NCBI GenBank assembly: GCA_963827755.1
Contig: CAWHCQ010000011.1
Span: 151,531-215,530 of the forward strand
DNA: 64,000 nucleotides
From: an uncultured Gammaproteobacteria bacterium
Lineage (GTDB): Bacteria > Pseudomonadota > Gammaproteobacteria > UBA9214
Reading direction: 5' to 3'
In this document: positions 12,019 through 57,505 of the stretch, piece after piece
Layout of the letters: every line of letters begins with the position of its first letter
Numbering within the stretch: the stretch's first letter is position 1
Translations under genes and position numbers: made by a program
The notes under the pieces: generated by a model
Seen by the model: only the letters and a program-made list of their open reading frames with translations
The model's database searches: none
Told to the model about the DNA's origin: nothing

Positions 12019-12471
12019 TTAAAATTCTATCCAGGTAATGATGTGATCTTCCAGCTCTTCCTTGAGAACATCTGTTTCGCTCACGGTTCTGCCGTGTACG
12101 GAAATACCGGCCCGACGCACACTCTCCGGGTCGCCTGATAACAAGGGGTGCCATGCCTCCAGCTGCTGGCCGTTTGCCAGGCGTCGATAGGCGCAGCTCG
12201 CTGGCAGCCAGTCGAACTGCTCCTGCCTGTCGGGGGACAACAGCATGCAATCGCTGACCAGGGACTCGCGCTCCGGGTAATTCGTACAGTGGCACGAATT
12301 CTCATCCAGCAGGCGGCAGGCAACATTTGTATAAAACAACAACCCTGAATCAATATCTTCCAGCTTGTGCAGGCAGCAGCGGCCGCAGCCATCACAGAGC
12401 GACTCCCATTCTCCCGGGGTCATCTCCTGCAGTGATTTTGTATTCCAAAATGTCCGGGCTTCTGTAACCAT
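12019..12471 (-). CDS. ycgN: YcgN family cysteine cluster protein
   Basis: EWESLCDGCGRCCLHKLED, WLPASCAYR, WHPLLSG. Confidence 0.9.
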   Translation of the reverse strand: MVTEARTFWNTKSLQEMTPGEWESLCDGCGRCCLHKLEDIDSGLLFYTNVACRLLDENSCHCTNYPERESLVSDCMLLSPDRQEQFDWLPASCAYRRLANGQQLEAWHPLLSGDPESVRRAGISVHGRTVSETDVLKEELEDHIITWIEF

Positions 12472-12542
12472 GGGCAAGGTGTCCATTCCTGTTGCTGATG
12501 ATTATCCATGAAAAGCACTCTCTTTGGCGAACAAGGTCGACC

Positions 12543-13799
12543 ATGAGCCTGGAGCGGCAGAAATGGGGCTGGGCGATGTATGACTGGGCCAACTCGGCCT
12601 TCGCCACCACGGTAATGGCCGGTTTTTTCCCGGTATTTTTTAAAGACTACTGGAATGCAGGACTGGATCCGGTAGACAGCACTTTTCGACTGGGTATCGC
12701 CAATTCCCTCGCCAGCCTGCTGATCGTGCTGCTGGCGCCGCTGCTGGGGGCCGTGGCAGACAGGCTCGCCTGGCGCAAGGCCATGTTGCTGGCATTTGCA
12801 TTGCTGGGTTCGCTGATGACTGCGGGGCTGTACCTGGTCGGACAGGGAGACTGGCAGCTGGCCATGTTTCTTTATATTTTCGCCGTCATCGGTTTCTCGG
12901 GCAGTAATATTTTCTATGATTCCCTGTTGCCGTTTGTCAGCCGCGAAAAGGACATGGACAGGGTCTCCGCACTGGGGTTTTCACTCGGCTACCTTGGTGG
13001 TGGCGTGCTGCTTTCATTGAACGTTGGCATGACCCTGCATCCGGAATGGTTCGGCCTGTCAAGTTCAGTCAGCGCGGTGCAATGTTCATTTCTTGTTGTC
13101 GCTGCCTGGTGGCTGGTGTTTTCCATCCCCCTGTTCCTGTTTGTCGAGGAACCGGATGGCATCCGATCGAACTTTTCCGTGCAGGTGTTGCTGGCAGGAT
13201 TCCGGCGTGTCTGGCAGACACTGCACGAGGTCAGGCAGTTACGAAACGTATGGATGTTCCTGGTGGCCTACTGGCTGTATATCGACGGCGTCGATACCAT
13301 TGTCCGCATGGCGGTTGATTACGGAATGTCACTTGGATTTGACAGAAACAGCCTGATTCTTGCGTTACTGCTGACGCAATTTACGGGTTTTCCCTCGGCC
13401 TTGCTGTTTGGCAGGCTGGGCGGCCATTTCGGGGCAAGAGCCGGCATCCTGTTCGGCCTGTCCATTTATGTACTGGTAACGGTGTGGGCATCACGCATGT
13501 CGACAACCGCAGAATTCTATTACCTGGCAGTCATCATCGGATTTGCACAGGGCGGTGTTCAGGCGCTGAGCCGGTCACTGTATGCGCGCATGATTCCTGC
13601 GGGACGCAGTGCAGAATTCTTCGGTTTTTATAATATGCTCGGCAAGTTTGCCGCAATTATCGGTCCTTTTATGGTGGGCTGGGTCGGCGCGCTGTCCGGT
13701 AATCCACGTACCGGTATTTTATCCTTGCTGCTCTTGTTCGTGGCCGGTGCGGCCTTGCTGCTGAAGGTCAGGGAGTCTGGCCCTGCCCGGTCCGTATGA
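12543..13799 (+). CDS. MFS transporter, UMF1/Atg22-like family
   Basis: WAMYDWANSAF start, FYDSLL, QALSRSLY, about 12 hydrophobic segments. Confidence 0.9.
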   Translation: MSLERQKWGWAMYDWANSAFATTVMAGFFPVFFKDYWNAGLDPVDSTFRLGIANSLASLLIVLLAPLLGAVADRLAWRKAMLLAFALLGSLMTAGLYLVGQGDWQLAMFLYIFAVIGFSGSNIFYDSLLPFVSREKDMDRVSALGFSLGYLGGGVLLSLNVGMTLHPEWFGLSSSVSAVQCSFLVVAAWWLVFSIPLFLFVEEPDGIRSNFSVQVLLAGFRRVWQTLHEVRQLRNVWMFLVAYWLYIDGVDTIVRMAVDYGMSLGFDRNSLILALLLTQFTGFPSALLFGRLGGHFGARAGILFGLSIYVLVTVWASRMSTTAEFYYLAVIIGFAQGGVQALSRSLYARMIPAGRSAEFFGFYNMLGKFAAIIGPFMVGWVGALSGNPRTGILSLLLLFVAGAALLLKVRESGPARSV

Positions 13800-14068
13800 T
13801 TGTCATTCACCGCAGCCAGGCAGACGGGCGGCATCGGTTGCCGGTTTTGCAGGGCGGAACCCTGTTTTTATGCGCTGAAAATACAGTATGTGTTATTTCA
13901 TCGGCTGTCTGGATACAACATACTGTGTTCGGAGGCGTCCTGGATGTGTTCCAGGAAATTTTATAACCGACTGAATTTTAGTAATTATTTGAATATGTAT
14001 AATAAAAACAATATAATATCTGTGCTAATTATTAAACCAATTATAAATCGACCCGAGGAGTTCGTGTC

Positions 14069-14969
14069 ATGCATGATTATGTCGACCTGTTGCAACGACG
14101 TCTGCAGCATCTCAAGGTAAGTCACGATGCCTCCTCGAGAGCGATATGGGTCGAATTCAAATACGATAACCGTCCCTGTTTTTCCACTGAATTGCTCGAG
14201 GACGTCTGGACCGTGCAGCGTTCCATCCGCCAGGCCGCCCTGTCCGGCTATCATGAAAATCGTGATGACAGGCTTCTCTTTCAGGTAATCGCTTCTACCG
14301 ACAAAAACGTATTCAGTATGGGGGGTGACCTGGCTTACTTTATCGGGCTGATCGAGGCGAATGATGAAGAAGGTCTCAGGGACTATGCGAAACGTTGTAT
14401 CGACATTCAGTACGCCACTATAAGTCATTACGATATACCGTTTACAAGCATTGCATGCGTGGGCGGGGAAGCCCTGGGCGGTGGATTCGAGGCCGCGTTA
14501 TCAGCCAATGTGCTGGTTGCCGAGCAGCAGGCACGCTTCGGTTTCCCGGAGATTACATTTGGCATGTTCCCCGGGATGGGCGCTTTATCGCTGCTGACAC
14601 GAAAGATCAACCCGTCAATGGCGCGCCGGCTTAGTCATGGACCATCGTATCTACACAGCTGCAGAATTATATGAAATGGGTGTGGTCGATATCCTGGCAG
14701 CGGAAGATGAAGGGCGAGCCGCTGTCAATGACTATATGCAACGCCACATATCGCTGGCCCCCGGATACCACGGTTTCCAGGCGGCGATTGACCGGGTTAA
14801 CCCGGTTAATTATGAAGAAATGTGTGACGTTGTCGGGCTTTGGGTGCAGGCTGCGTTACAGACTACCGAAAAGAACCGGCGCCTGATGGCCTACTTTGCC
14901 CGCGCCCAGGCAAGACGAAGTATCAGTTCTGAAAATATGGCTGAAGTCGTTGATTATAATTCAGCCTGA
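14069..14969 (+). CDS. rpfF: DSF synthase RpfF-like crotonase (apparent frameshift near 14633)
   Basis: FSMGGDLAYF, ALGGGFEAALS and FPEITFGMFPGMGA (both catalytic Glu); continues in the 14637-14969 ORF as YTAAELYEMGVVD; convergent with an rpfC-like gene. Confidence 0.88.
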
Positions 14970-14984
14970 TCAATAAATGATTTG

Positions 14985-17570
14985 TCAGTTGAGCGCGGCC
15001 CTTTTCTCAAATGCAGTTAGCTTGATCTGAAGCAGCTGGACAGCGTCATCTGTTGCGCGACTGATGGCCTGCGCATGTGTAATACCTTTACTGTCAAATT
15101 CATCAGCACCAATGTTCTGTGCAACCTTGCTGAGATATGCGAGCCGGGTTAGCCCAAGGTAAAGTGCACATCCCTTGAGGGCATGAGCATGATCGCTGAA
15201 CGCAGTCCGGTTATGAGCAGCTAAAGCGGATTCAAGGCCCTCGAGATCATTTCTTGCATCGGTTTCGAAATTCCTGATCAGTTCGATAACGAAATCATAA
15301 TTTCCTTCTGTAAGGTTCACGAGTTTTTCAAACTCCTCAGCATCCAGAACCGGAAATGATTCCAGGTCAGGGTCCGGCTGCGTTTCCTGCGGTTTCGCTT
15401 CGGTGGAAAACACGGCATCTGTATCATCAGTATGTAAGGATGCGAAGGTCTCCTGGAGCTTGAACAGTGATACAGGCTTGGTAAGGAACAGGTCAATTCC
15501 AGCGGCCTCGCAAGTCGCCCTGCATTCTTCAGTAGCATCTGCTGTAAGGATGATGAATGGAATGGGCGGATGACCGCCATGCGCAAAACAGTAGGCCTGG
15601 TAGGCTTCAATTCCTCCAAGATCCGGCATATTCTTGTCGACGATTACTGCATCGTACGCGCTGTCCTCAAGTGCGGTAAGGATTGCTTCACCACCATCTA
15701 CGATGGTGTACTGGTGCCCGAGTTTGTCGAGCATACGCTGCAATACAAGCCGGTTGGTCGCGCTGTCGTCGCCAACAAGAATACGTAAGGGTCTGCCTGA
15801 TTTCTGTTCAATGACCTGTTGGTGTGAGAAGTGAATCACATCGTCCTCCTTGCTGTGCCTCGAATAACAGGCATGTAGTACATTGATAAGAATATTTCCC
15901 TCCAGTGGTGGCTCCAGGACGAAAACCTGGTCCTGATTATTTTCATTGATGTTGACTGGATACTGCTCTGTCCCGATGAGGATTATTTTCACCCCGTCGG
16001 GGATGCTCGTATCCTCACCAGAGAGTATTCCCGCGAGTTTCTGCTCATACGGCATACTGTCTATTATCAGGGCTGTATGGTTGCCCTGAGTGAATAGCAG
16101 CCGGCCTGCCTGATCGAAAGTTGTTGCCAGATCACAGGGCATGTTCCATTCTTTCAGGCTGGCGGGGATGCTGTCCTCTGCATCTGCCTGCGGGTTTAGA
16201 TACACTACCCGGCATCGGCTGGTCCATGCCTGACCGTTCACGGCCGCAGCCCGGGTGTTGGCCGCAAACGGGATATCGAACCAGAAGGTAGAACCCACAC
16301 CCGGGGTACTCTGTACACCGATTTGTCCGCCCATCAATTCGACAAGGTTCTTGCAGATGGTCGTGCCCAGCCCGGTGCCGCCATAATTTCTCGATACGCT
16401 GCTATCGGCCTGGGTGAATGGTTCAAAGATCGCCTGGATCCGGTCTGCAGGTATGCCCGTGCCTGTATCGGCAACCTCGAATCTCAATACGGTCTGACCG
16501 GTGTCAATATCGCGTGGATATATACGTATGGAGATGATTCCCTGTGCGGTAAACTTGATAGCGTTTCCGACTAAATTGATAATGATTTGCTGGAGTTTAT
16601 CCGGGTCACCGGTTAGCAGAAAGGGCGTTCGCGGGTCAATTATTTCCTGCAGTTGCAGGCGTTTCCCCTCTATCTGGGGCTGAAAAATTCGCATGGTTGT
16701 GTTGATCAGGGCATAAAGATCAAATTCAATTTGTTCCAGTGTTAATTGACCGGCCTCGATTTTTGACAGGTCGAGAATCTCGTTAATCTGCCGTGCGAGA
16801 GCATGACCGGAAGCATAAATGGTGTCAACATATTCCCTGTCTTCAGGTTCCAGCGGTCTTAATTTCAGCAAGTCTGTCATGCCAAGAATGCCGTTAAGCG
16901 GGGTACGGATTTCGTGTGACATACAGGAAAGAAAATCACTCTTCGCGCGGCTTGCGTCATCTGCGCGCTGCCGGGCTTCGTAGAGTCGTCGGATCAAGAC
17001 GGCGGAATAGGCCGGGATCAACAGTAAAGTACATGCTAGGCCAATTGCCAATTCTTGCGTGGGTCGTCCAGTAAGGGGTGAATTTTGCAACAAATGCAAA
17101 ACCTAGAAGTGATACAGAGGCAGACAGATAAAGATATTTCTCGCCGTAGCGGAACCCATTGCCGAGTGTTACCCAAAGGTAAACACCAAACCATGGTGCG
17201 CCCATATGGTCCAGTTACATAAAGTCCATAACTTAATAGCCCCAATATCTCACAAGATACCTAATAATTCGTCTTGAGGAGGATGGCATATTGCCAGATA
17301 TGCTAGAGAAGATGTGAGATAATAATAGTGCAAAATCAGGAATGATCAGGATAAACCAATATTCCTTTTGACCAATAGTTCAGATACCTGCGTTATCCTC
17401 ATGGTTTAATTATCAAATAAATAGATCATGAAAGCGATAGGGTATAGCGAGTACGTAGTACTGCTTGTTCTTGCTCAGGAGATCCTGTCCAGCCAATCAG
17501 ATCTTAGGCACATCTTGAGCTTATGCAATGAGTCTTTGCTTGGAGAATTTTGTGCCTGGGCTGTAGTCAT
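14985..17570 (-). CDS. rpfC: RpfC-like hybrid sensor kinase (TM-HisKA-HATPase-REC-HPt); 5' transmembrane part broken by several frameshifts
   Basis: [12 protein letters not shown]-box, G boxes, [11 protein letters not shown], HPt HALKG; upstream fragments EQEQAVLR and [13 protein letters not shown] resemble the RpfC/RpfH sensor region; start at 17570 is tentative. Confidence 0.82.
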
Positions 17571-17656
17571 TGCTCTTTTTTAACCTGCACTGGAAGGTAT
17601 TCCTGTTAACAAGACGGATAACGGCAGCGCAGGTATAATGCTTTAAGCGTCATTCT

Positions 17657-17914
17657 GTGGAGAATAATTGCTTGTTGCAAGATACTGTAATTAAAGAAAT
17701 ATCTTCTCATCTCAAGTGCCGGCCTGGAGATATCACGCTGGACATGCGCCTGGACGAATTGGGGATCGATTCACTGGGGGCTATTACTATCATGTACGAA
17801 CTGGAAGACCGGCTGGATGTTGAAATTCCCAATGAAGTCTTTGATAAACTCACAATAGTCAATGACATTGTGAATCAACTGGAACTCCTGCTGGGAAATA
17901 GAAATTCGGAATGA
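17657..17914 (+). CDS. Dedicated acyl carrier protein (NodF-like)
   Basis: LGIDSL phosphopantetheine Ser motif, acidic 85 aa, overlaps the ketosynthase start. Confidence 0.9.
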   Translation: MENNCLLQDTVIKEISSHLKCRPGDITLDMRLDELGIDSLGAITIMYELEDRLDVEIPNEVFDKLTIVNDIVNQLELLLGNRNSE

Positions 17915-19132
17915 CAGGCCGGGTTGTCATTACAGGCCTTGGCAGCGTCTGCGGACTGGGTGTCGGTGTTGCGGCTTTCTGGGATGCTCTCTGCCGGGGA
18001 CATACATCCATCGGGCCGCTGACAGGATTTGCGGACGATGTAAAGATTCAAACCGGTTCTCGACTGGAGGGTTTCCAGCCGGAGCAATACTTCCCGCGGG
18101 ATGTACTGCCACTCCTTGATCGTTTCTCGCAGTTCGCACTATTGGCGGCACGGGAGGCTGTCGAGGATGCCGGGCTTGCTGCAGGCAGTGAAGATCCTGA
18201 GGCAGGCGGCCGCCATTATCGGGACGGGTTGTGGCGGAAAGCAGACGGATGAAGAAACTTATACAAAGCTCTACAAGGAGCAGGGCAAGCGTGTCCACCC
18301 GCTGACCATTCCCAGGGGTATGCCCAGTGCAGCAGCCAGCATGGTCAGCCAGCAGATTGGCATCAAGGGCCCGGTCTTTTCGGTTACCAGTGCATGTGCG
18401 TCTGGCGCCCATGCAATCATCCAGGGCCGCATGATGATTCAGTCGGGGCTGGTGGATATTGCCCTGGTCGGGGGGACCGATGCCCCTTTCACCTATGGTC
18501 TGTTGAAGGCCTGGGAAGCCTTGCGGGTCGTGTCGAATGATACCTGCCGTCCATTTTCAAGCGACCGGTCCGGCATGGTGCTGGGAGAAGGCGCCGGGAT
18601 GCTGATCCTGGAGTCTGAACGGCATGCAAGCCGGCGTGGTGCGCGTATTTATGCCGAATTTGCCGGTTGTGGCATGTCATCTGATGCAGGTCATATTACC
18701 CGTCCGGATATAGACGGTATTTCCAGGGCGATAACAGCTGCCCTTGAAGATGCCGCATTGCCCACAGAATCGGTGGATTACATTAATGCACATGGTACGG
18801 GTACGGTTGCCAACGATCTGGCTGAAACGCAGGCGATAAACAGGGTATTTGGCAGGCATGCCGGCGCCCTGGCGGTTTCTTCAACCAAGTCGATGCATGG
18901 GCATGCGCTTGGGGCAGCCAGTGCGCTGGAACTGGTTGCCACAACCCTGGCGGTGGTAAACAACAGGATACCGCCTACGGCAAATTTTACAGGGCCCGGG
19001 GAGGGATGTGATCTGGATTATGTGCCCAACCTGGCACGAGAGAAACAGGTTGATGTTGCCCTGTCCAATGCATTTGCCTTCGGTGGATTGAATGCCGTCA
19101 TAGCATTGAAATCCTGGGTGCCCGGTGGTTAA
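17911..19132 (+). CDS. Beta-ketoacyl-ACP synthase, NodE/FabF-like (apparent frameshift near 18192)
   Basis: RVVITGLG, TSAC catalytic Cys, NAHGTGT, TKSMHGH, SNAFAFGG; MPSAAA and LKAWEA.R motifs as recalled for NodE. Confidence 0.9.
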
Positions 19133-20213
19133 TTAGCCAGGTTTTCTAAACAGGTAGTGGCTGTTACCGTAGACTGTGCCTTCCATGGGCGCGAAGACGG
19201 CCTTGCAGAGTGAAAAGTATTCATTCCAGTGGGCGATTGCCCTGGTATCAAAGACCGATTTGTACAGGGAAGGGATGTTGTTCCAGTAGCGCCTGTGCCA
19301 TTCATCCAGTGTCCGCCAGTAATTAAGTCCATTTATAAACCAGTTTCCTTCCAGGTCGAGAATGGTCTGTATGACGAAAGAATTCGGCATGAGGCCAGAC
19401 TCTTCCACCAGGGAAATATATACCAATTCTTGTCTTAGTTGGGTCTAGAAATTGTGGGATGACAATCTTTGAGGTAATAAAATGATTGAATGATCTGCCG
19501 CCTGGAATGAGTAGTTTACTTATCTTTTCATGTATCAGAGCTGCATGTTGTATACATGCTCAAATACTGCAACTGGATATTACAAGATCGATAGTTTAGA
19601 TTTCCCAAGCTTCATTAAAGGTAGTTTGTTCGAAAGTACCTTCTATTAATTTAAATTTCCCACTACCTAGAATAGTCTGACGGATTTTGCAATCGTTCTG
19701 TCTCAGGTATGCGATTTGTACAGTGCTTGGGGTAATGCCAACAATCTCAAGATCGGGAAATTCCTCTAAAAGATAGGTCTCGAGAGACCCAAACCCACAG
19801 CCAATGTTGAGAATGCGCTCATGGCCTTCTATTCTTGCGCGTTTTGCAATCAGCGCGAACTTGGCCCGTTGTGCTTCTTCCAGTGATGCGCTGGAGGAGC
19901 GAATTATCTCAGGGGATTCACCATAGTAGGCCATTGAATAGGCCATGTATCGCGTATCAAGAAAGCTTGCAAAGAATTCCGGCCGCTCATCATAGTGGCT
20001 GTCCATCAGGGCTTCTGTTTCTTCCATCATCGGGCCCTGGTCTGTTGATATGCCCAATGATTGGAGAGTAACAGGGTTATCTGAAAGGCGCCTGTATTCA
20101 CGCTCGAAGTAGCGGACCAGATGGTCTTCATGCCTGGCAAGTTCATCGCTACCCGGGCCAAAAATATTCTTGCTGGCGAGCAGGTCGCTGATTTCTTTAT
20201 CGAGAATTGCCAT
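19133..20213 (-). CDS. Class I SAM-dependent methyltransferase, CFA-synthase/CMAS family (several frameshifts)
   Basis: HYD, YS, LEEAQRAK, LNIGCGFG; manual reading of 19426-19600 gives VFEH and IYFPGG; C-terminal YWRTLDEW..WNEYFSLC. Confidence 0.82.
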
Positions 20214-20331
20214 CAGATATTCGGATTACTGATCCTGTTGCAGGATATCGCTCGTGGAATGTGAGCGAGTGTAACCCATAATTTGCAAACTGGCAGCAGC
20301 CAGGATCAGGGGGGTAAGAGTCGTATGGACC

Positions 20332-21390
20332 TTATCGACTGTGTGCCAGTGGCTTGTCCGGCAGCATGCCGTGTATTTTTGTTATCTTGTCGAGTTGGGT
20401 TTTGAAGGCCGTAAAACATTCCGGATCAAAGTGCTTGCCGCTGTGGTTTTCCATGTATTCAAGCGCGGCTTGCATGGACCAGGCATTTTTATAAGGGCGA
20501 TCAGATACCAGTGCATCATAGACGTCGGCGACGGCCACGATGCGTGCCTCAATCGGGATATCTTTACCTTTTTTGCCGTAAGGGTAGCCGGTGCCGTCGA
20601 ATTTTTCATGATGCCCGAGTGCGATAATGCCGCCCAGCTGCAGGTACTTTGAAGGACTGTCCTTCAGAATCTCATACCCGATTGTGGTGTGATTCTTCAT
20701 TATCTCGAATTCTTCAGCCGTCAGTTTACCGGGTTTGAGCAGGATACCGTCCCTGATGCCAATCTTGCCGATGTCGTGCATGGGTGCTGACATTTCAATG
20801 ATTTCTGCATCCGCCTCGGAGAATCCCATTTGTTCTGCTATGAGACGTGAATACTTCGCCATGCGAATAATGTGATTGCCTGTTTCCTCGTCCCGATATT
20901 CTCCGGCCCTCGCCAGCCGCAGCAGGGTTTCACGTTCGCGTAATCTGATTTCACTGGTAGCCTCGGCAACACGTCGTTCAAGCCAGCGGGAGCGGTCGCT
21001 GATAATCTTGTATTGCTGCGACTGGGTCAGCAGGTTGCGGCAGCGTGCGCGGCATTCATAGTGGTCAACCGGTTTCATCAGGAAGTCGGTGGCCCCGGCC
21101 TCCAGCGCATCGTAACGCACTTTTATGTCTTCAATGGAAGTCACCATGATGACAGGGATATGAGCGCAGGCCGGGTTGCTACGGAACTTCCTGATAAATT
21201 CAACGCCATTCATTTCCGGCATCTTGTAATCCACCAGCACCAGGTCGGCGGCTCTTTTTACCGTCCATTCGAGCGCCTCTACCGGGTTCGCAAACGCCTC
21301 TGTAACGAGGTTTCGCTCAAGCGTACTGACCAGCTGTTGCAGGATTTTGCGGCTGGTAAGCTGGTCATCAATGATCAGAATTGTCGCCAT
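20332..21390 (-). CDS. rpfG: RpfG-like REC + HD-GYP c-di-GMP phosphodiesterase
   Basis: REC domain (IIDD, LVDYKMP, KP) then YRDEETGNH, HDIGKIG, HHEKFDGTGYP; in the rpfF/rpfC cluster. Confidence 0.88.
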   Translation of the reverse strand: MATILIIDDQLTSRKILQQLVSTLERNLVTEAFANPVEALEWTVKRAADLVLVDYKMPEMNGVEFIRKFRSNPACAHIPVIMVTSIEDIKVRYDALEAGATDFLMKPVDHYECRARCRNLLTQSQQYKIISDRSRWLERRVAEATSEIRLRERETLLRLARAGEYRDEETGNHIIRMAKYSRLIAEQMGFSEADAEIIEMSAPMHDIGKIGIRDGILLKPGKLTAEEFEIMKNHTTIGYEILKDSPSKYLQLGGIIALGHHEKFDGTGYPYGKKGKDIPIEARIVAVADVYDALVSDRPYKNAWSMQAALEYMENHSGKHFDPECFTAFKTQLDKITKIHGMLPDKPLAHSR

Positions 21391-21716
21391 ACGAATTCAC
21401 AAGTACCTGTCAAAATCCACGATAAATGCCTTCAAGGCCGCCCGTCTTGTCCCGGGTGCCCGGCCCGCAAACCAGAATAATGTCATAACTATATGATGTA
21501 ATATATGAAACATATTCTGTTACCCGACAAAACATGCTATCGGCAGAAGCGCATATATATTGAGTCTTGATACCGGGCTTGATTCCGGGCCGGTTACCGT
21601 TCCCTTGAAATCTCAACCGCCCGGTTAACTGGTCAAATTACCCTGTGCAGCCGGCCATCCTTGCAGCAGAACGCATGCCCGGTAGAATGTCGCCGAAAAG
21701 AGCCCGGGAATAGAGT

Positions 21717-21941
21717 ATGGTTGATGATCGCAAGAATGAGCCAAAAGTGCCTTCGTTTCTGGACGTGCTGGGAAGCGTCCTGGCGAGTATGTTCGGTGTG
21801 CAAAGTAATCGTAAGCGTGAAGAAGACTTCACCCACGGGAAGCCTTCGCAGTACATCGTCATCGGCTTGATCGTGACGATAGTTTTTATTTTGACAATCT
21901 GGGGGGTGGTCAAGCTGGTGATGAAGCTGGCGGGTATCTAG
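21717..21941 (+). CDS. DUF2970 family small membrane protein
   Basis: SVLASMFGVQSNRKREEDF motif plus C-terminal TM helix. Confidence 0.85.
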   Translation: MVDDRKNEPKVPSFLDVLGSVLASMFGVQSNRKREEDFTHGKPSQYIVIGLIVTIVFILTIWGVVKLVMKLAGI

Positions 21942-22019
21942 TTGCGGTGTGCCGGGAAGTCACCACCTGACAGACGGTCATATCTGAACCACCGTCCTTC
22001 ATTAATAATGCAGTAAAGG

Positions 22020-24785
22020 TCAAAGCGCCTGGATCTTTTCTTTTTGTCCTTCCAGGTTATTGATGACCGAGCCAAGTTCGGTCGCACGTGCACGTTCCTT
22101 TTCGACGACATCGGCCGGGGCCTTGTCTACAAAGCCCGGGTTGAGAAGTTTTTTCTCGCAGCGGCCCAGTTCATTTATCTTCTTCTCGAGTTCTTTAGTC
22201 AGTCGCAGGATCTCGCTGTCCTTGTCGATCAGGCCTGCAAGCGGAATCAGCAGTTTCATATCGCCGACCAGCGCGGTGGAAGACTCCGGTGCTGTTTTAT
22301 TTACATCCAGCCAGGTAACGGATTCAATACGGCCGACACTCTCGAGGTAACGCCGGTTTCTGTCGAGCCGTTGCCTGTCTGTTGCAGAGCCATCCTGCAG
22401 CAGTACGGGTAACAACTTGCGGGGGTCGATATTCATGCCGCTGCGAATCTTGCGCACTCCTATAATGAAATCCTTCACCCAGTTGATTTCCGCAAGCGCA
22501 TTCCGGTCGATCTTGCCGGTGTCGGGTGCCGGGTAGGGCTGGCGCATGATGGTTTTTCCCGCAACACCGGCAAGCGGTGCCATGCGTTGCCAGATCTCCT
22601 CGCTGATGAAGGGGGTCAACGGGTGGATCAGTCTTAAAACGGTCTCCATTACCACGACCAGGGTTCTGCGTGTGCCACGCAGTGCCCCGGCGTCACCGTC
22701 AGGGTCCGTCAGCACCGGTTTCGATAGCTCCAGGTACCAGTCGCAGTATTCGTCCCAGATAAAGGTGTAAATGGCCTGTGCTGCAAGGTCAAAGCGGTAG
22801 TTTTCGATGGCCTCGATGACTTCCTGTTCGGTCTGCTGCAGCAGGCTGATTATCCATCGATCGGCATCATTCAGCAGCACCTCGCTGCCGTCCTGGCCGC
22901 AGTCCTGGCCCTCGGTATTCATCAGCACATAGCGGGCGGCGTTCCACAGCTTGTTGCAGAAGTTGCGGTAGCCCTCGATCCGTCCCAGGTCGAAGTTGAT
23001 GTCACGGCCGGTGGAGGCGAGGGCGGCAAAGGTAAAACGCAAGGCATCGGTACCGAATGCCGGTATGCCGTCCGGAAAGTCCTTGCGGGTCATCTTGTCG
23101 ATCCTGTCCGCCATCTTCGGCTGCATCAGGCCGGCGCGGCGCTTGGCAACCAGTGCCTCCAGCTCGATGCCATCGATCAGGTCGATCGGGTCGAGTACAT
23201 TGCCCTTGGACTTGGACATTTTCTGGCCGTGTGCATCGCGCACCAGCCCGTGAATATAAACCTCCCGAAACGGGACTTCACCGGTGAACTTGAGCCCCAT
23301 CATGATCATGCGGGCGACCCAGAAGAAAATTATGTCAAAACCGGTGACCAGTACGCTGGTCGGGTAGAAGGTGTTCAGTTCTTCGGTCTTTTCCGGCCAG
23401 CCCAGCGTGCTGAAAGGCCAGAGCGCGGATGAGAACCAGGTATCGAGTACGTCTTCATCCTGGTGCAGGGCGAGTTCATCATCCAGGCCGTGTTTTTCAC
23501 GCGCTTCTTTCTCGCTGCGCCCGACGTAGATATTGCCGGCCTCGTCATACCAGGCCGGTATCCGGTGTCCCCACCAGATCTGGCGCGAGATGCACCAGTC
23601 CTGGATATTGCGCATCCATTCGAAATAGGTGTTCTTCCAGTTGTCCGGCACGAATTTGATGCGCCCGTCCTCGACCGCCCTGATGGCCGGTTCCGCCAGC
23701 GGTGCGATCTTCACAAACCACTGGTCGGTCAGGAACGGCTCAACCACGGCGCCGGAGCGGTCGCCGCGCGGCACCATCAGTTTGTGGTCCTCGACCTTCT
23801 CCAGCAGTCCCGCAGCCTCGAGGTCGGCGACGATCTGCCTGCGCGCCTCGTAACGATCCATGCCGCCGTACCGGCCGGGGGCCTCGTCATTGATGCAGGC
23901 ATCGATGGTGAGAATATTGATCACCGGCAGGTCGTGACGCTTGCCCATTTCGTCGTCATTGAAATCATGGGCCGGCGTGATTTTCACGCAGCCGGTGCCG
24001 AATTCCGGGTCGACATAGTCATCGGCGATGACGGGAATGTCACGGTCCGTCAGCGGCAGGCGAATGTGCTTGCCGATCATCGACTGATAGCGCTCGTCGT
24101 CGGGATGCACGGCGACCGCCGTGTCGCCGAGCATGGTCTCGGGCCGCGTCGTGGCGACGACGAGACTGCCGGAGCCGTCTGCCAGCGGATAGCGCATGTG
24201 CCAGAGATGGCCATCTTCCTCTTCGGAAACCACCTCGAGATCGGATACCGCGGTGTGCAGCACCGGGTCCCAGTTCACCAGGCGCTTGCCGCGGTAGATC
24301 AGGCCTTCTTCATAGAGGCGGACAAAGGTCTCCCTGACGGCCTGTGACAGGCCCTCGTCCATGGTGAAGCGCTCACGGCTCCAGTCCACGGATGAACCCA
24401 TGCGCCGCAGCTGGCGGGTAATGGTCCCGCCGGATTCATGTTTCCACTCCCAGATGCGCTTGATGAATTTCTCGCGGCCGAGATCATGCCGGGTCAGGCT
24501 GTCGCTGTTGAGCTGGCGTTCGACCACCATCTGCGTCGCGATGCCCGCATGGTCGGTGCCGGGCTGCCACAGGGTGTTGTCGCCGCGCATGCGGTGGTAG
24601 CGGGTCAGCGCGTCCATCAGGGTGTCCTGAAAGGCGTGCCCCATGTGCAGGCTGCCGGTTACATTCGGCGGCGGAATCATGATGCAGTAGGGCGCACCTT
24701 CACCGGAAGGCGCAAAATGTCCTTCCCGCTCCCAGGTTTCGTACCATTGCTGTTCTATGGCGTGCGGATTGTAGGTCTTTTCCAT
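22020..24785 (-). CDS. valS: Valine--tRNA ligase
   Basis: [24 protein letters not shown]; 921 aa. Confidence 0.99.
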
Positions 24786-27172: not shown

Positions 27173-27332
27173 GCAGCGTCCCTTTATGTGATGATGGTTG
27201 TGATTGCAGTTCGCGGGCCTTGTGTTATACGGTAGTCGCGTTCCTGATCGATGCCTGCCAGCAGCGTTAATATATCAGGGAAGTGTACTGGAAGCAGGCA
27301 TGATTTTCATGCTGCCAATCGGGCCCATCCGG

Positions 27333-28432
27333 ATGATCCGTGTTTTTGATCGTTACCTGCTAAGAGAAGTGATTCACGGCTGGCTGGTCGTGACCGTCAT
27401 CCTCTGGCTGATTCTTGTCAGTAATCGACTGGTGCAGTACCTGGGTGATGCAGCAGCCGGTGAGATACCGGGTAACGTGGTGTTTAAACTGCTGGGTCTG
27501 AAGATGGTCTGGTACCTGGTGCACGTGGTCCCGTTCGCCCTGGCGCTGGGCGTGATTATCGGGCTGGGCCGCATGTATCGCGATAATGAAATGACCGTGA
27601 TGGCGGCCTGCGGGGTCGGGCCCGGACAGATCTACAAGCCACTGCTGACACTCGGCGTCGTCGTCGCTGTTCTGCTTGGCTGGCTGTCGCTCTATGCCGG
27701 ACCAGCCGTCGAGGGTATGAGTCTGCAGGTAAGGGCATGAAGCAGAACAGCAGGCAGATCTTACGGTGCTGGGCGCGGGTCGCTTCAATGCCATACAGGG
27801 TGGCCGCCTGACGTTTTATGCCGAACGACTCTCAAAGGACAAGCAGCAGATGGAGAACCTGTTTATTGTTGTCAGCGGCCATGCTGGCGACGAAACTGCC
27901 CTGCAGCTATTAAGGGCAGAGTCTGCCTACCGAAAACGGGATACAGCAAGCGGTGATGATTTCCTGGTGCTGGTCGATGGTTACCGTTACGAAGGCACGC
28001 CCGGCATGAAAAACTACCGGATTATGAAGTTCGGGGAATACGGTGTACGTATTGATTTGCCGGGCGTGCAGAGAGTCTCCTCGAAGCTGGTTGCGACGCC
28101 AACCGCACTGCTGCTTGGTTCGGCTGATCCTGAAAAGCGTGCCGAGCTGCAATGGCGTCTCGCCATGCCGTCTGTCGGTCATGGTGTTGCTGTTTCTCTC
28201 GGTGCCGCTGTGCAAATCCTCGCCGCGACAGGGTCGTTATGGCCGCCTGGTGATGGCCATCCTGCTGTTCGTGGTCTATTACAACCTGCTGGGCGCCGCA
28301 AAGGTGTGGGTTGAGCAGGGCGACGTGCCGGCCTCTATCGGCCTGTGGTGGGTGCCGCTATTGACCGTAATCCTGGCCCTGGTCCTGCTCAACAGTGACC
28401 GGCTGGCCGGCCGCTTCGGGCGTTCTGCATGA
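27333..28432 (+). CDS. lptF: LPS export ABC permease LptF (apparent frameshifts near 27740 and 28170)
   Basis: DRYLLRE, LGRMYRDNEM, DGYRYEG, AELQWRL, PRQGRY across three frames; divergent from pepA. Confidence 0.9.
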
Positions 28433-29490
28433 AGATCCTGGACCGCTACATTGCAGTGGCGATTGCTGCAGGCACGGGGATTGCGCTGCTGGTCATCGTT
28501 GGCCTGGATGTTTTCTTTAACATCATCGGCCAGCTGGACAAGGTTGGCGTGGGTACCTACAGCCTCTGGAAGATGTTCCTGTTTGTCGCGCTGACGACAC
28601 CGAAAAGCATCTACGAGATGTTCCCGATGGCCGCGTTGCTTGGCAGCCTGATCGGCATGGGTATGCTGGCAGCCAGCAGTGAGCTGATTGCCATGCGGGC
28701 AAGCGGCATCCCGGTCTGGCGCATTGTGCGATCGGTGCTGCAGGCCGGCGTGCTGATGCTGGTTGTGGTCGTCATGGTTGGTGAGCTGGTCGCACCACCG
28801 GCGGAACACTACGGACAAAAATTGCGCGCTGCCGCCACCAACAAGGCGGCGAGCTTCCTCGGCACCCTGGGCCTGTGGGTGCGTGATGGCAACTATTACA
28901 TCAATGTAAAGAAGATCCTCAGCGACGAAAACCTGGCCGGTCTCACGATCTACGAGTTCGAGGACGATTCCAGTCTGTCCGTGATCACGACATCTGCGCA
29001 GGCGCAGGTTGAAAACGATGTATGGCAGCTGATCGATGTCGAGCAGACACGGTTCGATGATAACCAGGTGGTAGTGCAGCACTATGATCAGCTGGAGCGG
29101 CAGACGCTGGTATCACCCGAGTTGCTCAGCGTCGTCGTGATGAAGCCGCAGACCATGTCGGTTGTCGCTATTTCCCAGCTGGTTGATTACCTCGAGGAGA
29201 ATGGTCTTGATGCACAACAGTACCGTTACGCCTTCTGGGGGCGCCTGATGACCCCGTTTGCCTCGCTGGTCATGCTGCTGGTATCCGTGCCCTTCGTCTT
29301 CGGCGGCTTGCGTTCCGTGCCCACGGGACAGCGTATTTTTATCGGCATTCTTGTCGGCTTCGGGTTTTACGTGGTCACCCAGATTTCCAGCCAGATGGGG
29401 CAGGTATACGGGATCAACCCGCTACTCGCCACGCTGGTGCCAGGTCTTTTGTTCATGTTGCTCGGTATTCGTGCAATTCAAAAGATCTGA
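28429..29490 (+). CDS. lptG: LPS export ABC permease LptG
   Basis: MKILDRYI, LAASSELIAMRASG, PFVFGGLRS. Confidence 0.95.
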   Translation: MKILDRYIAVAIAAGTGIALLVIVGLDVFFNIIGQLDKVGVGTYSLWKMFLFVALTTPKSIYEMFPMAALLGSLIGMGMLAASSELIAMRASGIPVWRIVRSVLQAGVLMLVVVVMVGELVAPPAEHYGQKLRAAATNKAASFLGTLGLWVRDGNYYINVKKILSDENLAGLTIYEFEDDSSLSVITTSAQAQVENDVWQLIDVEQTRFDDNQVVVQHYDQLERQTLVSPELLSVVVMKPQTMSVVAISQLVDYLEENGLDAQQYRYAFWGRLMTPFASLVMLLVSVPFVFGGLRSVPTGQRIFIGILVGFGFYVVTQISSQMGQVYGINPLLATLVPGLLFMLLGIRAIQKI

Positions 29491-40967: not shown

Positions 40968-43154
40968 ATGCCCCCCATCACCATCCCGCAGGCCGAGACC
41001 GCGCTGTACGACTACCCGAAGTACTGGGCCGAGTGTTACGGCAGCAGTGACTTCCTGCCCGTATCCAGGGCGGAGATGGACGCGCTCGGCTGGGATTCCT
41101 GCGACATCATCCTCGTCACCGGCGACGCCTACGTCGACCAGCCGTCCTTCGGCATGGCCATCATCGGCCGGCTGCTGGAGGCGCAGGGGTTTCGCGTCGG
41201 CATCATCGCGCAGCCCGACTGGCATGCAAAAGAGCCGTTCATGGCGCTCGGCAAACCGAACCTGTTCTTCGGCGTCACCGCCGGCAACATGGACTCCATG
41301 ATCAACCGCTACACCGCCGATCGCAAACCGCGCTCGGACGATGCCTACACGCCCGGCGGGCAGGGCGGGGCGCGCCCGGACCGCTCTTCGCTGGTCTACA
41401 GCCAGCGCTGCAGGGAGGCGTACGCGGACGTGCCGATCGTGCTCGGCGGCATCGAGGCATCCCTGCGGCGCATCGCGCACTACGACTACTGGTCGGACAC
41501 GGTGCGCCGTTCCATCCTGCTCGATGCGCAGGCCGACATCCTTTTATACGGCAATGCCGAGCGCGCCATCGTCGAGGTCGCGCACCGCCTGTCACGCGGC
41601 GAGCCCGTCGAGCGCATCACCGACGTGCGCGGCACGGCCTTCATCCGCCGCGACACGCCGGAAGACTTCCAGGAGATCGACTCCACGCGCATCGACCGCC
41701 CCGGTCGCATCGACAGCATCGTCAATCCCTACATCAACACACAGGCCATGGACGCCTGCGAAAAACAGCGCCGCAATGCACAGCAGGTCGGCATTGACGA
41801 AAACGGCGCCGTGATCGTCGAGTTCACCCGGCCGAACAGACTCGACCGCGACGAAAACGGTCATCCGCCTGCCGTCGTTCGAGAAGGTGCGCAACGACAA
41901 GGCGCTCTACGCCCACGCCAACCGCGTGCTGCACCTCGAGACCAACCCCGGCAATGCGCGCGCCCTGGTGCAGCAGCCACGAGGGCCGCGACCTCTGGCT
42001 GAACCCGCCGCCGATCCCGCTTGAGCACGGAAGAAATGGACTACGTCTTCGGCATGCCGTATGCGCGCGTGCCGCATCCGTCCTACAAAGGCAAGAAGAT
42101 CCCGGCCTATGAAATGATCCGCTTCTCGGTGAACATCATGCGCGGCTGCTTCGGCGGCTGCACCTTCTGCTCCATCACCGAGCACGAGGGCCGCATCATC
42201 CAGAACCGCTCGGAGGAATCGATCCTCAACGAGGTGAAGGACATCCGCGACAAGGTGCCGGGCTTCACCGGCGTGATCTCCGACCTCGGCGGCCCGACCG
42301 CGAACATGTACCGCATCGCCTGCAAGACACGCGAAATCGAGGCCGCCTGCCGCCGGCCGAGCTGCGTCTATCCCGGCATCTGCACGAACCTCAACACCGA
42401 CCACTCCGCACTGACGCAACTCTACCGCGAGACCCGCAAGCTGCCCGGCATCAAGAAGGTGCTGATCGCCTCGGGTCTGCGCTACGACCTCGCCATCGAA
42501 GACCCGGAATACGTCAAGGAACTGGTCACCCACCACGTCGGCGGCTACCTGAAGATCGCCCCGGAACACACGGAAGCCGGCCCGCTGTCGAAGATGATGA
42601 AACCCGGCATCGGCAGCTATGACAGGTTCAAACAGCTGTTCGAGAAATTCTCCAAAGAGGCCGGCAAGGAACAGTACCTGATCCCGTATTTCATCGCCGC
42701 CCACCCCGGCACCACCGATGAGGACATGCTGAACCTCGCGCTGTGGCTGAAAAAGAACGACTTCCGCGCCGACCAGGTGCAGGCGTTCTACCCGTCGCCG
42801 ATGGCCACCGCGACCGCCATGTTCCACACCACCAAAAACCCGCTGAAGAAAGTCAGCTACAAGAGCGCCACGGTGGAAAGCGTCAAGGACCCCGCGCAAC
42901 GCAAACTGCACAAGGCCCTGCTGCGCTACCACGACCCGAACAACTGGCCGCTGCTGCGCGAAACACTCAGGAAGATGGGCCGCGCCGACCTCATCGGCGA
43001 TGGCGAACACCAGCTCATTCCCAAAGACCAGCCGAATGACAAGGCCTACCAGGCACCGCGGCGTAAAAACTCACAGGCCGCCCACCAGCGCCGCACCAAG
43101 GGCAAGAAAATACTCACCCAGCACACCGGCCTGCCACCGCGCAGCAGCCGTTAA
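40968..43154 (+). CDS. ygiQ: YgiQ family radical SAM protein (apparent frameshifts at about 41855-42020)
   Basis: [47 protein letters not shown]. Confidence 0.93.
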
Positions 43155-52855: not shown

Positions 52856-53470
52856 ATGCCATCAACCACCATCGGTGACGCCTTGTTCACCAAAACACAA
52901 CAGCGCGTGTTGAGCTTGCTGTACGGAAAACCCGACCGGAGTTTTTACACCAACGAGATCGTGCGCCGGGCTGACATGGGGCGGGGCACAATCAGTCGTG
53001 AACTCGCCCGGCTGGTTTCTGCCGGTTTGCTCGTGATCACCCGCGTGGGGAATCAACACCACTACCGGGCCAACCCCGATACTCCTGTCTATAACGAGTT
53101 GCTGGGCATCGTCAGAAAGACGTTTGGCATCGCCGATGTGATCAGGGCGGTGCTGGCGCCAGTGGATGACCAGATTGACTGGGCATTTGTTTATGGTTCT
53201 ATCGCCAAAGGTGAGGATGCCGCCAGCAGCGATATTGATTTACTGGTTGCAACGGAGTCTTTGGCCTACGCCGATTTAATGAAGGTTCTTACGCAGGCCG
53301 AGCAGTTACTTGACCGGCCAGTTAACCCATCCATCTATACACTCGAGCAGATCAAAAACAAGGTGCATGATAAAAATGCATTCTTGAGCCGGGTGATGGA
53401 ACAGCCAAAGCTGTGGGTTAAAGGAAGCAAGGATGACATTGGATGGACTGGACAATTTAGTAAAAATTAA
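52856..53470 (+). CDS. wHTH + minimal nucleotidyltransferase (MNT) antitoxin-like protein
   Basis: N-terminal HTH (ISRELARL..AGLL) and YGSIAKG....SDIDL pol-beta motif. Confidence 0.85.
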   Translation: MPSTTIGDALFTKTQQRVLSLLYGKPDRSFYTNEIVRRADMGRGTISRELARLVSAGLLVITRVGNQHHYRANPDTPVYNELLGIVRKTFGIADVIRAVLAPVDDQIDWAFVYGSIAKGEDAASSDIDLLVATESLAYADLMKVLTQAEQLLDRPVNPSIYTLEQIKNKVHDKNAFLSRVMEQPKLWVKGSKDDIGWTGQFSKN

Positions 53471-53864
53471 ACAACTAAAAGTTGAGCCACCCGATCAGAC
53501 CGAGTTTGACGGCATGGTGAACTCAGCCAGGAGTCGTCTACAGGATTCCAGGATCGAAGGGTTATCCGAGGGTGGCCGGTTTTCCCTTGCGTATAGTGCA
53601 GCCCATGCATTGGCCCTGGCAGCAATGCGCTGGCATGGGTATCGTTCAGACAAGCGCTATCTGGTATTCCAGTGTTTACAACATACGGTTGAATTGGAGC
53701 ATGCAAAATGGCGTGTGCTCGATAAATGCCATACGCAGCGTAATCTTGCTGAGTACGAGGGTCATCTGGAAATCACGCCACAGTTACTTCAAGAATTAAT
53801 TGACATAACAGAAGAGTTGTTGAAATCAGTTGAAGCCCTGGGCCCGGTAAAAAACATCTCCTGA
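53433..53864 (+). CDS. HEPN-domain protein (partner of MNT)
   Basis: Overlaps the MNT gene, helical, AYSAAH and RNLAEY motifs. Confidence 0.7.
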   Translation: MTLDGLDNLVKIKQLKVEPPDQTEFDGMVNSARSRLQDSRIEGLSEGGRFSLAYSAAHALALAAMRWHGYRSDKRYLVFQCLQHTVELEHAKWRVLDKCHTQRNLAEYEGHLEITPQLLQELIDITEELLKSVEALGPVKNIS

Positions 53865-54716
53865 TCAGGTTGCAGTCATCAGGCTTTCAACTTTCCCGCT
53901 AAAAAAACGATTACCCCAAAGTTTCAGGCTCTTCCTCTCTGCAGTGTTCAGGAAGCGTTCGACATCCTGAATGGCTTCATTCCAGTTAACTGCTGCTACT
54001 TTCTCAAGCAGAGTGCGAGTTAACCACCCGGCATCAATCTCTATAGCTTGTCCTTCCCACGGGCCATATTGATGCAGCGCAGCCTGCAGGTGTGGAAGAT
54101 TGGGCTGGATCCCTTGTTTCACGTACCAGTTAAAGTCATACCAGTCACGGCCCTTCAAATAAGGCCTGCAAAGCAAGGCATGAATCTTTAGAGAGAAATT
54201 ACTGCTTAAATCCTGGTGGCATACCTCAAAATCCAAAGGAAAGTCCAGGTAGCTGAATTCAAAGCCTGAGCCCTCTGGCGGGTCCACATCAATTTCCAGT
54301 TTGATGTTGAGTTTCTGGTCAGAGTTATCTCGATAGAAAGACAGGTTCAATTGATTGCTGACTGAATTATTTTTAAGCAAGGCCTTTTTTACACGCTGAT
54401 CCATTCGGCTTTTGTCGAGCACCTCGGATTGCAGTCCGAACTCCTTAAGCCCCTCAATCAGGTGATCAAGATAGCCACCCCATTTGAATTCCGGGTTGGG
54501 TTTCCTGAGAATGAAGTCGAGATCTTCGGAGAATCTAGGCAGCTTATGCAAAATGCGCAAGCTGGTCCCGCCTTGAAACGCAGCCACTTCAAAAAATTCC
54601 GCTCGCCACAATGAATAGAGCGCAATCTCCTGCAGTATCTCTTTGGTAGCCTGTTCCTCCTCCACCGGATTACTGGCTTTATAGCTGTCCAGTTGCTGTT
54701 GAATGAGTTCAATCAT
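53865..54716 (-). CDS. AbiEii/AbiGii family nucleotidyltransferase toxin (type IV TA)
   Basis: FQGGTSLR, RFSEDLDF, KIHALL.R, KGRDWYD. Confidence 0.92.
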   Translation of the reverse strand: MIELIQQQLDSYKASNPVEEEQATKEILQEIALYSLWRAEFFEVAAFQGGTSLRILHKLPRFSEDLDFILRKPNPEFKWGGYLDHLIEGLKEFGLQSEVLDKSRMDQRVKKALLKNNSVSNQLNLSFYRDNSDQKLNIKLEIDVDPPEGSGFEFSYLDFPLDFEVCHQDLSSNFSLKIHALLCRPYLKGRDWYDFNWYVKQGIQPNLPHLQAALHQYGPWEGQAIEIDAGWLTRTLLEKVAAVNWNEAIQDVERFLNTAERKSLKLWGNRFFSGKVESLMTAT

Positions 54717-55362
54717 TGCCTAACTCCCTGGCCAAAGACTCGAGAAACACTGTAACCCGTTTGTGCTTGTAAACCAGTTGCAAGGTTCTGATATCTGTAC
54801 GCGTTACCTGCCGCAGGTATTCGTAATCAATACGCAGGCCGTCCTGTAGCCACCCCATTCCTTTCCATTCAATCTTCCTGAGGCACACCAGGTCCATTAA
54901 TGCGCGGACAGGCCTGGCGACAAGTGCGGTTTGCTTATTGATCTGCTCACGATCAACCAGCTCAAGAAAATAACCCGCATGCGTCGCCAGTGGATGAAAG
55001 CTGAAGTTTCCAAATAACGGATATTCGTATTCATGAGACTTGCGGCCGGGTGTCACGCTTGCTGTTGTATACACCGACTCGGGGATCCAGCCATGGTGCG
55101 CCAGCGCAGTTTCAAACGACACATAGCTCCCCGGTACGAATACCTGGGCCAATGCAAAAGGGTGGGCCGTGTAATCACGGTATCGCTCAGCTAATAAATA
55201 GGTGCCCCGGCGCAGACGCAGCAACTCGCCTGCTTTTATGGCCCGGTTCACCAGACTATGCCGGCGTTGAGGGGTGCCACTGATCAGCCGGGCCAACTGC
55301 GTATCAACAATCACCCGATTTTTAAAACCCTCGTTAATCAGCTGTTCGGTTAATGTCTGCAT
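54709..55362 (-). CDS. AbiEi family antitoxin
   Basis: LRLRRGTY, SYVSFETALAHHGWIPE; overlaps the AbiEii start. Confidence 0.88.
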   Translation of the reverse strand: MQTLTEQLINEGFKNRVIVDTQLARLISGTPQRRHSLVNRAIKAGELLRLRRGTYLLAERYRDYTAHPFALAQVFVPGSYVSFETALAHHGWIPESVYTTASVTPGRKSHEYEYPLFGNFSFHPLATHAGYFLELVDREQINKQTALVARPVRALMDLVCLRKIEWKGMGWLQDGLRIDYEYLRQVTRTDIRTLQLVYKHKRVTVFLESLARELGND

Positions 55363-55656
55363 GGCGCTACGACGGTGTGGCGTTAAACAGAGTAGATAAT
55401 TACAGAAACTTCCATAAAATGAAAGTATTAAGAATTATTATACCGTGTTGTTTTTTCAACCATCTGATATATATGCTTATTAAGCAACCAGATGCCACAG
55501 GGTGCAATTGAAAAAATGATCATTTCTTACGCAGAGACACCGGCCACGCCCCACACACCAGGCAAATGCACCCTACAACTGGTGGCAGCCAGTCACGCAG
55601 GCCGGGACAAGGAGCATGGCGACGGATCCGGCGCAGGTGCCCCCGGTTCCACCCCT

Positions 55657-56809: not shown

Positions 56810-56885
56810 GAGTTCCTCCTTTCCAAAATTAATTCTAGCCCCTGGAGGTAAAAATTGAAATCTAACATCCGGGCTACCCGGCTGG

Positions 56886-57492: not shown

Positions 57493-57505
57493 CGCATCAA
57501 CTCAC

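Follow-up and report, generated by a model that had tools for sequence, protein, structure and literature searches.

Why a quorum-sensing locus of diffusible signal factor (DSF) type should carry its own acyl carrier protein (ACP), beta-ketoacyl-ACP synthase (KS) and S-adenosylmethionine (SAM)-dependent methyltransferase is the question raised by a 64,000-nucleotide stretch of contig CAWHCQ010000011.1, hereafter the window, from an uncultured gammaproteobacterium of the lineage UBA9214. In Xanthomonas campestris, rpfB-rpfF is convergent with rpfG-rpfH-rpfC and the substrate of RpfF is acyl-ACP, as given in the pertinent passages of PMC4504480. The window locus resembles that system in its RpfF-type crotonase with both Glu motifs, its RpfC-type kinase gene convergent with rpfF, and its RpfG regulator of REC-HD-GYP architecture. 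Unlike the Xanthomonas system, it holds the ACP, KS and methyltransferase genes between rpfC and rpfG and lacks rpfH, there is no rpfB-like ligase in the window, the RpfF scores below the NCBIfam RpfF equivalog cut-off, and the hosts are marine sulfur-oxidising gammaproteobacteria rather than xanthomonads. The layout is a conserved, undescribed variant of the DSF system. With moderate confidence, we read it as an expanded DSF-family (RpfF/RpfC/RpfG) quorum-sensing system with a private ACP, a private KS and SAM-dependent tailoring. No published description of the layout was found in the full-text literature searched, a scope that mostly excludes subscription journals; the preliminary description of this DNA had likewise known of no such rpf cluster.

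The trio of ACP, KS and methyltransferase comes with one of two versions of rpfF-rpfC and travels with the synthase and the sensor, not with rpfG. This was seen in a search of the genus (37 genomes, including that of the window). An RpfF of the window's type, with 49-100% identity to the RpfF of the intact relative G007, was found in seven genomes; 19 have only an RpfF of 33-44% identity to that of G007, and 11 had no RpfF match at E 1e-30. KS matches at E 1e-90 or better were confined to six genomes, as were methyltransferase matches of at least 52% identity; all lie among those seven, and none among the 30 genus genomes without this RpfF type. The seventh genome, G012, breaks at contig ends at the KS/methyltransferase site. 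Four congeners of the plain type were fetched (G003, G017, G002 and G018), and at the same site they have the order prfC-CxxCxxCC-(MFS)-rpfF-rpfC-rpfG-valS, with no MFS hit at this locus in G003. Compared with G007, their RpfG is 79-83%, their prfC product 78-83% and their ValS 70-87% identical, whereas RpfF is 33-39% and RpfC 33-36% identical (25-44%, in pieces, for the RpfC of G018). RpfG, prfC and ValS being alike and RpfF and RpfC divergent, it is the synthase-sensor pair that has been swapped at a constant site. That the trio co-varies with synthase and sensor, and not with rpfG, agrees with a part in signal production. The preliminary description had held that absence of the three genes from homologous rpf loci of relatives would count against its proposal. 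The trio is indeed absent from the homologous locus of the four congeners, which carry a different, plain rpfF-rpfC pair, and we read this absence as two alternative cassettes, not as a refutation. In Stenotrophomonas maltophilia, matched RpfF-1/RpfC-1 and RpfF-2/RpfC-2 variants occur among close relatives, according to the relevant portion of PMC4504480. Similar to S. maltophilia, two rpfF-rpfC types occupy one locus within the genus studied here; unlike in S. maltophilia, identity between the types is no more than 33-39%, and three additional biosynthetic genes come with one of them.

The same gene set recurs well beyond the genus. With the intact G007 KS as query and one genome per species, 80 loci were kept and annotated by tblastn with six G007 proteins. 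The KS was at least 59% identical in 40 of these loci, and 35 of the 40 carry at least one rpf gene; all six genes are present in 17. Counted singly, the ACP was found in 38 of the close-KS loci, RpfC in 31, the methyltransferase in 29, and RpfF and RpfG in 24 each. The five without an rpf gene comprise three contigs of 2.1-4.2 kb and two long loci, L050 and L053. None of the other 40 loci (KS 46-55% identical, with one partial match at 60%; mostly Acidobacteriota) holds any rpf gene. Hosts of the set include Sedimenticola selenatireducens DSM 17993 and BK-1, S. thiotaurini, Thiohalobacter, and metagenome-assembled genomes (MAGs) labelled Chromatiaceae, Acidiferrobacterales and Arenicellales. 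The cultured S. selenatireducens DSM 17993 has the full set, in the order hrpB, rpfF, rpfC, ACP, KS, methyltransferase, an extra REC-HPt gene, rpfG, HAD. The gene order varies in L042, L036, L035/43/46 and L019, and the set stays together; in Sedimenticola the flanks differ (hrpB/HAD) while the core is retained. The preliminary description had suggested that rpfF and rpfC be sought together with ACP, KS and CMAS-family genes in several genera, and this recurrence was found; its interpretation as a whole is supported in part.

Two side observations belong with these loci. In Sedimenticola-type loci (L025, L027, L028, L105, L108, and L031 at 12369-13946), a protein of ~525 residues with REC and HPt domains is encoded between the methyltransferase and rpfG. 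A second, divergent rpfF-rpfC-ACP-KS(-methyltransferase) module, with an RpfF ~41% identical, is present in L122, L125 and L128; L128 and L040 come from one Thiohalobacter MAG, and the L040 contig has rpfC, ACP, KS and the start of the methyltransferase.

We also approached the linkage from the synthase. A scan with an alignment of 18 RpfF-like proteins was used to collect the best 80 of 574 relatives, where a scan with a single protein had given 10 loci. A quick IQ-TREE tree was built from 105 distinct RpfF-like proteins, leaving out the broken copy of the window, hits with less than 80% query coverage, sequences with stops, and exact duplicates. One branch with SH-aLRT support of 99 splits this tree, and 36 of the 37 KS-linked proteins fall on one side of it. 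That side has 44 rows: 23 loci with KS and methyltransferase, 13 with KS, one with methyltransferase only (on a 2.8-kb contig), six too short to judge and one degraded locus (L098). The 61 rows on the other side are plain rpfF|rpfC-rpfG loci or a lone rpfF, with one case of KS plus methyltransferase (L036).

The three signalling proteins were compared with known families. The window rpfF matches the intact G007 protein with 67% and 60% identity in two frames (tblastn). In a PDB sequence search, the RpfF-like proteins match the RpfF-type structures 7zq7, 3m6m, 5fus and 6dgn at E 4e-46 to 5e-40, and the next-best crotonase structures reach 1e-17 only. Both Glu motifs (GGGFE and PE) are invariant in 18 of 18 aligned sequences, align to 3m6m, and lie within the first reading frame of the window gene; we take the catalytic glutamates to be E141 and E161 in X. 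campestris numbering. By fold and nearest structures, we assign the putative synthase of the window to the RpfF family. The rpfC product has a membrane N-terminus followed by HisKA, HATPase_c, REC and HPt domains (Pfam), and its gene is convergent with the adjoining rpfF. It is 48% identical over 835 residues (tblastn) to an intact relative, and intact relatives are 853-859 residues long. The RpfC proteins have hydrophobic N-terminal segments and share a ...YLWV..GNGFRYG motif that is present also in many RpfC homologues of the plain type. RpfG is intact and 80% identical to the RpfG of G007; its HD, HHE and GYP motifs are present, as in the cyclic di-GMP (c-di-GMP) phosphodiesterase type.

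The ACP reading frame is intact and carries a DSL serine motif. The Pfam N and C domains of ketoacyl synthases fall on the two pieces of the KS, which is 402-404 residues long in intact relatives. With Cys and His patterns assumed for this family, 43 of 44 sequences have the Cys motif and all 44 have the first His motif; the second His (GHALGAAS) was identified by eye, in the window sequence alone. The KS scores 428 against a cut-off of 493.75 for the fabF equivalog TIGR03150, and 416 against 387 for the subfamily NF005589. It is 45% and 37% identical to the other KS genes of its genome. As to whether the acidobacterial ACP-KS pairs are housekeeping fab genes, those of L051 and L063 have neither fab neighbours nor rpf genes. 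The ACP-KS pair of L050 (7364-13002) stands beside a fatty-acid hydroxylase, a canonical cyclopropane fatty acid (CFA) synthase and a FeeM-like N-acyl amino acid synthase-aminotransferase fusion.

Pfam CMAS was found on both pieces of the window methyltransferase, which match an intact relative with 59% and 72% identity in two frames (tblastn). Four intact relatives score 98.8-120 bits with this model (cut-off 27), and intact relatives are 350-385 residues long. The protein is far below the cut-offs of CFA synthase equivalogs (84 against 400 and 79 against 650), so that by these scores it is classed as a member of the CMAS superfamily only, and not as a CFA synthase. Its best solved relatives are plant N-methyltransferases (6e-17), then CFA synthases (1e-14), and it matches mycolic-acid methyltransferase structures at E 1e-10 to 1e-9. 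Residues 71-340 of the query align to residues 118-362 of the 6bqc chain, which is the catalytic part of CFA synthase only; the missing N-terminal part is presumably the membrane-binding domain. The 120 methyltransferase homologues listed bear generic names only, and the ESM Atlas gave only generic CMAS clusters and no structure. As a side observation, in G007 (L009, 8382-9960) an insertion sequence, made up of an rve integrase and an HTH open reading frame (ORF), lies between KS and methyltransferase, and the flanking genes are open.

In lineages that lack the methyltransferase, another enzyme often takes its position. L106, L107 and L110 have there, convergent with KS, a gene for a B12/radical-SAM protein of ~503 residues. 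The protein has a radical-SAM core, and its N-terminal part matches the B12-binding/radical-SAM models PhpK, HpnJ, HpnR and ladderane-lipid, all below cut-off. A B12/radical-SAM gene stands upstream of rpfF in L102. That two unrelated SAM enzymes alternate beside the synthase suggests C-methylation or cyclopropanation of the putative signal chain. A B12/radical-SAM gene, rpfF and a gene for a GGDEF-EAL protein lie side by side in L134 (7582-13534), from a MAG labelled delta proteobacterium, and this locus is reminiscent of an RpfR-type DSF system that carries this tailoring enzyme. The Burkholderia DSF (BDSF) system, the RpfF homologue BCAM0581 with the PAS-GGDEF-EAL receptor RpfR, is similar to the present one in using the same synthase family (5fus, E 5e-40) and, through L134, in an rpfF adjoining a GGDEF-EAL protein. 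Unlike BDSF, the window system uses RpfC/RpfG instead of an RpfR-type receptor and has a private ACP-KS.

The features of the locus are collected in Table 1.

Table 1. Coordinates of the rpf locus and its flanking genes in the window.
Feature	Position	Strand	Basis or place
Atg22-like MFS	12492-13799	+	flanking gene
rpfF-like crotonase, putative DSF-type synthase	14069-14969	+	Pfam ECH_1, tblastn
rpfC-like hybrid sensor kinase	14985 to ~17570	-	Pfam, translation, tblastn
short divergent spacer, rpfC (-) / ACP-KS (+)	17571-17656	.	coordinates
ACP, stand-alone, 85 aa	17657-17914	+	Pfam PP-binding
FabF-like elongating beta-ketoacyl-ACP synthase (KS)	17911-19132	+	Pfam ketoacyl-synt N and C
CMAS-family SAM-dependent methyltransferase	19133-20213	-	Pfam CMAS
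rpfG, REC + HD-GYP response regulator	20332-21390	-	Pfam Response_reg, HD_5, HD
valS	22020-24785	-	flanking gene

The ORF listing, Pfam and tblastn against intact relatives place all six genes between the MFS gene and valS, which bears out the positions given in the preliminary description. The start of KS overlaps the stop of ACP by 4 bases. Also confirmed were the earlier statements that three biosynthetic genes, those for ACP, KS and methyltransferase, lie between rpfG and rpfC and that no rpfB ligase adjoins them: no AMP-binding domain, as in an rpfB-like acyl-CoA ligase, was found among the 59 window ORFs scanned by Pfam (12 + 47). The claim of an AT-richer block holds for most of 14000-22000 (GC content 0.42-0.53, against 0.55-0.63 in the flanks) and fails for KS (0.57-0.58) and part of rpfC (0.56). 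The most AT-rich 500-base bins of the block are those of 17000-17999, around the spacer between rpfC and ACP (0.42-0.47). The source MAG is 2.85 Mb in 52 contigs, its relatives are labelled uncultured Ectothiorhodospiraceae or Gammaproteobacteria, and near-identical DNA was found in sediment metagenome runs. Elsewhere in the window, a hemerythrin-GGDEF diguanylate cyclase gene (60480-61577) may encode a partner of RpfG in c-di-GMP turnover. Positions 52856-60342 are a run of mobile or defence-type genes, with a Pol-beta nucleotidyltransferase, an AbiEii toxin, an IS200-type Y1 transposase and three antitoxin-like ORFs (Unstab_antitox, HI1420-downstream type and HicB-like).

The observations above establish what the genes are, that the catalytic motifs are present, that the linkage is conserved and that the trio co-varies with synthase and sensor. 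We infer the chemical steps, their order and the product from the sequences, and the product of the locus is probably a chemically modified signal. In the route that we propose, the private ACP and the FabF-like elongating KS would carry out the final elongation of the chain on a carrier kept apart from bulk fatty-acid synthesis, and housekeeping FabG would reduce the resulting 3-oxoacyl-ACP. The CMAS-family SAM methyltransferase, or the B12/radical-SAM enzyme instead in some lineages, would put a methyl or methylene group on the chain. The RpfF-type crotonase would then dehydrate the 3-hydroxyacyl-ACP and hydrolyse the thioester to release a modified 2-enoic acid. This signal would be detected by the membrane sensor RpfC, which would phosphorylate RpfG, and the HD-GYP domain of RpfG would degrade c-di-GMP. 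RpfF enzymes dehydrate 3-hydroxyacyl-ACP and cleave the thioester, and their broad thioesterase activity is countered by RpfB, as reported in the sections of PMC4504480 concerned with these enzymes.

Two other systems combine parts of this chemistry. Mycobacterial type II fatty-acid synthase (FAS-II) has a dedicated ACP and an elongating KS of the KasA/B type, and CMAS-family SAM enzymes are thought to act on its ACP-bound chains. Together with the mycolic-acid methyltransferases, it offers the same combination of ACP, KS and CMAS-family enzyme; unlike FAS-II, the two-enzyme unit here is tied to signalling instead of a pathway for cell-wall lipids, and its sequences are only distantly related. 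In the Phc system of Ralstonia, the methyltransferase PhcB makes methyl 3-hydroxy fatty-acid esters that are sensed by PhcS/PhcR. At the level of function this resembles our proposal, in that a fatty-acid-derived signal is modified by a SAM methyltransferase and sensed through a two-component system; unlike the locus here, Phc has no RpfF, ACP or KS.

The trio could instead be the output of the system, a small lipid-remodelling unit (for example, for cyclopropanated or branched membrane acyl chains) that RpfC/RpfG would activate, with RpfF taking ordinary acyl-ACPs as it does in Xanthomonas. The methyltransferase is downstream of rpfG on the same strand, ACP-KS and rpfC have the divergent spacer in common, the named relatives in the methyltransferase family modify membrane or cell-wall lipids, and there are close ACP-KS pairs that lack rpf genes, one in L050, beside the canonical CFA synthase and FeeM-like gene, and one in L053; all of this is consistent with an output unit. 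Within the genus, however, the trio changes along with rpfF and rpfC, and RpfG keeps 79-83% identity. The radical-SAM replacement also adjoins rpfF where the receptor is of a different type (L134), and the alignment of the methyltransferase covers just the catalytic portion of CFA synthases. We consider an output unit unlikely.

The state of the genes in the assembly suggests another explanation, a decaying pseudogene cluster in a strain that has lost DSF-type signalling, the stops and frameshifts being real. Four of the six genes are interrupted (rpfF, rpfC, KS and methyltransferase) and ACP and rpfG are intact; the preliminary description had seen the break in rpfF and missed the other three. 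The window rpfF is read in two frames, with one extra base near 14631-14634, and one additional base near 18194 divides KS between two frames. The rpfC gene is open at 14985-17099 only, with many stops upstream of that, and its N-terminal sensor part (17100-17570) is disrupted by numerous small insertions. The methyltransferase has two in-frame stops and small insertions or frameshifts between 19360 and 19697. The valS, MFS and prfC genes have no internal indels, a contrast that favours decay. Real loss also looks to have happened in one lineage: in L098 (9983-12237), on a closed MAG chromosome, the MFS-rpfF locus is retained, rpfC is cut to a 443-residue REC-HPt protein, and a search over 10 kb showed no ACP, KS, methyltransferase or rpfG gene.

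The pattern of the breaks in the window argues against decay. All six genes are open in relatives. Compared with G012 and L024 (~80% identity), the broken genes contain ~25 small insertions and almost no deletions, and bacterial gene decay is biased towards deletions. Most of the insertions are packed in two ~300-bp patches (17200-17530 and 19360-19700), with single insertions at 14634, 17050-17059 and 18194, and the rest of each gene is open. Hypermutation was considered as the cause of the rpfC stops and rejected, there being no excess of G>A or C>T in any 300-base bin against G012. One-base insertions of the same type break other genes of the window. The essential gene lptF (27204-28314) is split in two frames by three of them (27183, 27738 and 28171, against G012, where the frame is open for at least 405 residues), next to an intact lptG (28429-29490); we read this split as an assembly error. 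A ygiQ-like radical-SAM gene (40968-43154) is split as well, its Radical_SAM_N domain lying over two ORFs, with frame changes near 41960-42023.

An independent check was made with Logan contigs of four sediment metagenome runs (X1-X4). The extra base at 14630 is left out in X1 and X4, that at 17057 in X2, and that at 18193 in X3 and X4; all three checkable insertions are missing from every covering near-identical contig. Positions 17263-17513 and 19522-19772 had no covering contig at 95% likeness or more in any of the four runs, which was not used as evidence because the inserted bases alone would lower likeness below 95%. A contig of X1 passes from 17205 to 17525 and omits 319 bases of the region for the RpfC sensor. 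We conclude with high confidence that the breaks in the four genes are most likely consensus errors of the assembly and, therefore, that the organism probably has an intact system, the locus copy probably being intact in nature. Decay of the window locus is improbable.

Several observations weigh against an expanded signalling system as we have proposed it. The density of insertions is much higher in rpfC and the methyltransferase than in the rest of the window, which is explained only by supposing a locally unpolished consensus. The RpfF-like protein is below the cut-off of the NCBIfam RpfF equivalog NF053515 (187.3 against 550 bits) and passes only the generic crotonase model NF006452 (301.7 against 177). 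The methyltransferase is equally distant from the N-methyltransferase and CFA synthase families, and therefore its substrate is unreadable from sequence; L020 and L116 have neither the methyltransferase nor the radical-SAM enzyme, and the methyltransferase is therefore not obligatory. L050 and L053 have close ACP-KS pairs and no rpf genes within 10 kb, and in L036 the RpfF that accompanies ACP-KS-methyltransferase belongs to the opposite side of the tree. One RpfF clade would also result if ACP-KS-methyltransferase had been inserted once in an ancestor and passed on vertically, and related genomes do not count as independent cases. A trio that hitch-hikes neutrally, as an unrelated unit that entered between rpfC and rpfG a single time and was then inherited, is nonetheless very improbable: the placement of nearly all KS-linked RpfF proteins in one clade is what a single insertion predicts, but the linkage outlasts several rearrangements and different flanks, the second, divergent module (L122, L125 and L128) has the same make-up, and the methyltransferase position is refilled by another SAM enzyme.

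In the current view, RpfF alone draws DSF signals from the fatty-acid pool of housekeeping metabolism. This picture of DSF signalling would change with a widespread clade that has a carrier, a condensing enzyme and SAM tailoring of its own, and such a clade predicts new signal structures. The private carrier may shield bulk lipid synthesis from the broad thioesterase activity of RpfF, which would fit the lack of a linked rpfB. The expanded cassette would give a genetic basis for signal specificity among close relatives. More tentatively, the loci may be exchangeable signal cassettes, in which ACP-KS would set the chain, an interchangeable SAM enzyme the methyl or cyclopropane mark, and the matching RpfC would read the result, the synthase-sensor block being swapped against a conserved RpfG at one chromosomal site. 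If this possibility holds, close relatives would use different fatty-acid dialects, comparable to agr or ComQXP pherotypes, and marine sulfur oxidisers, relatives of animal symbionts among them, would have such a system.

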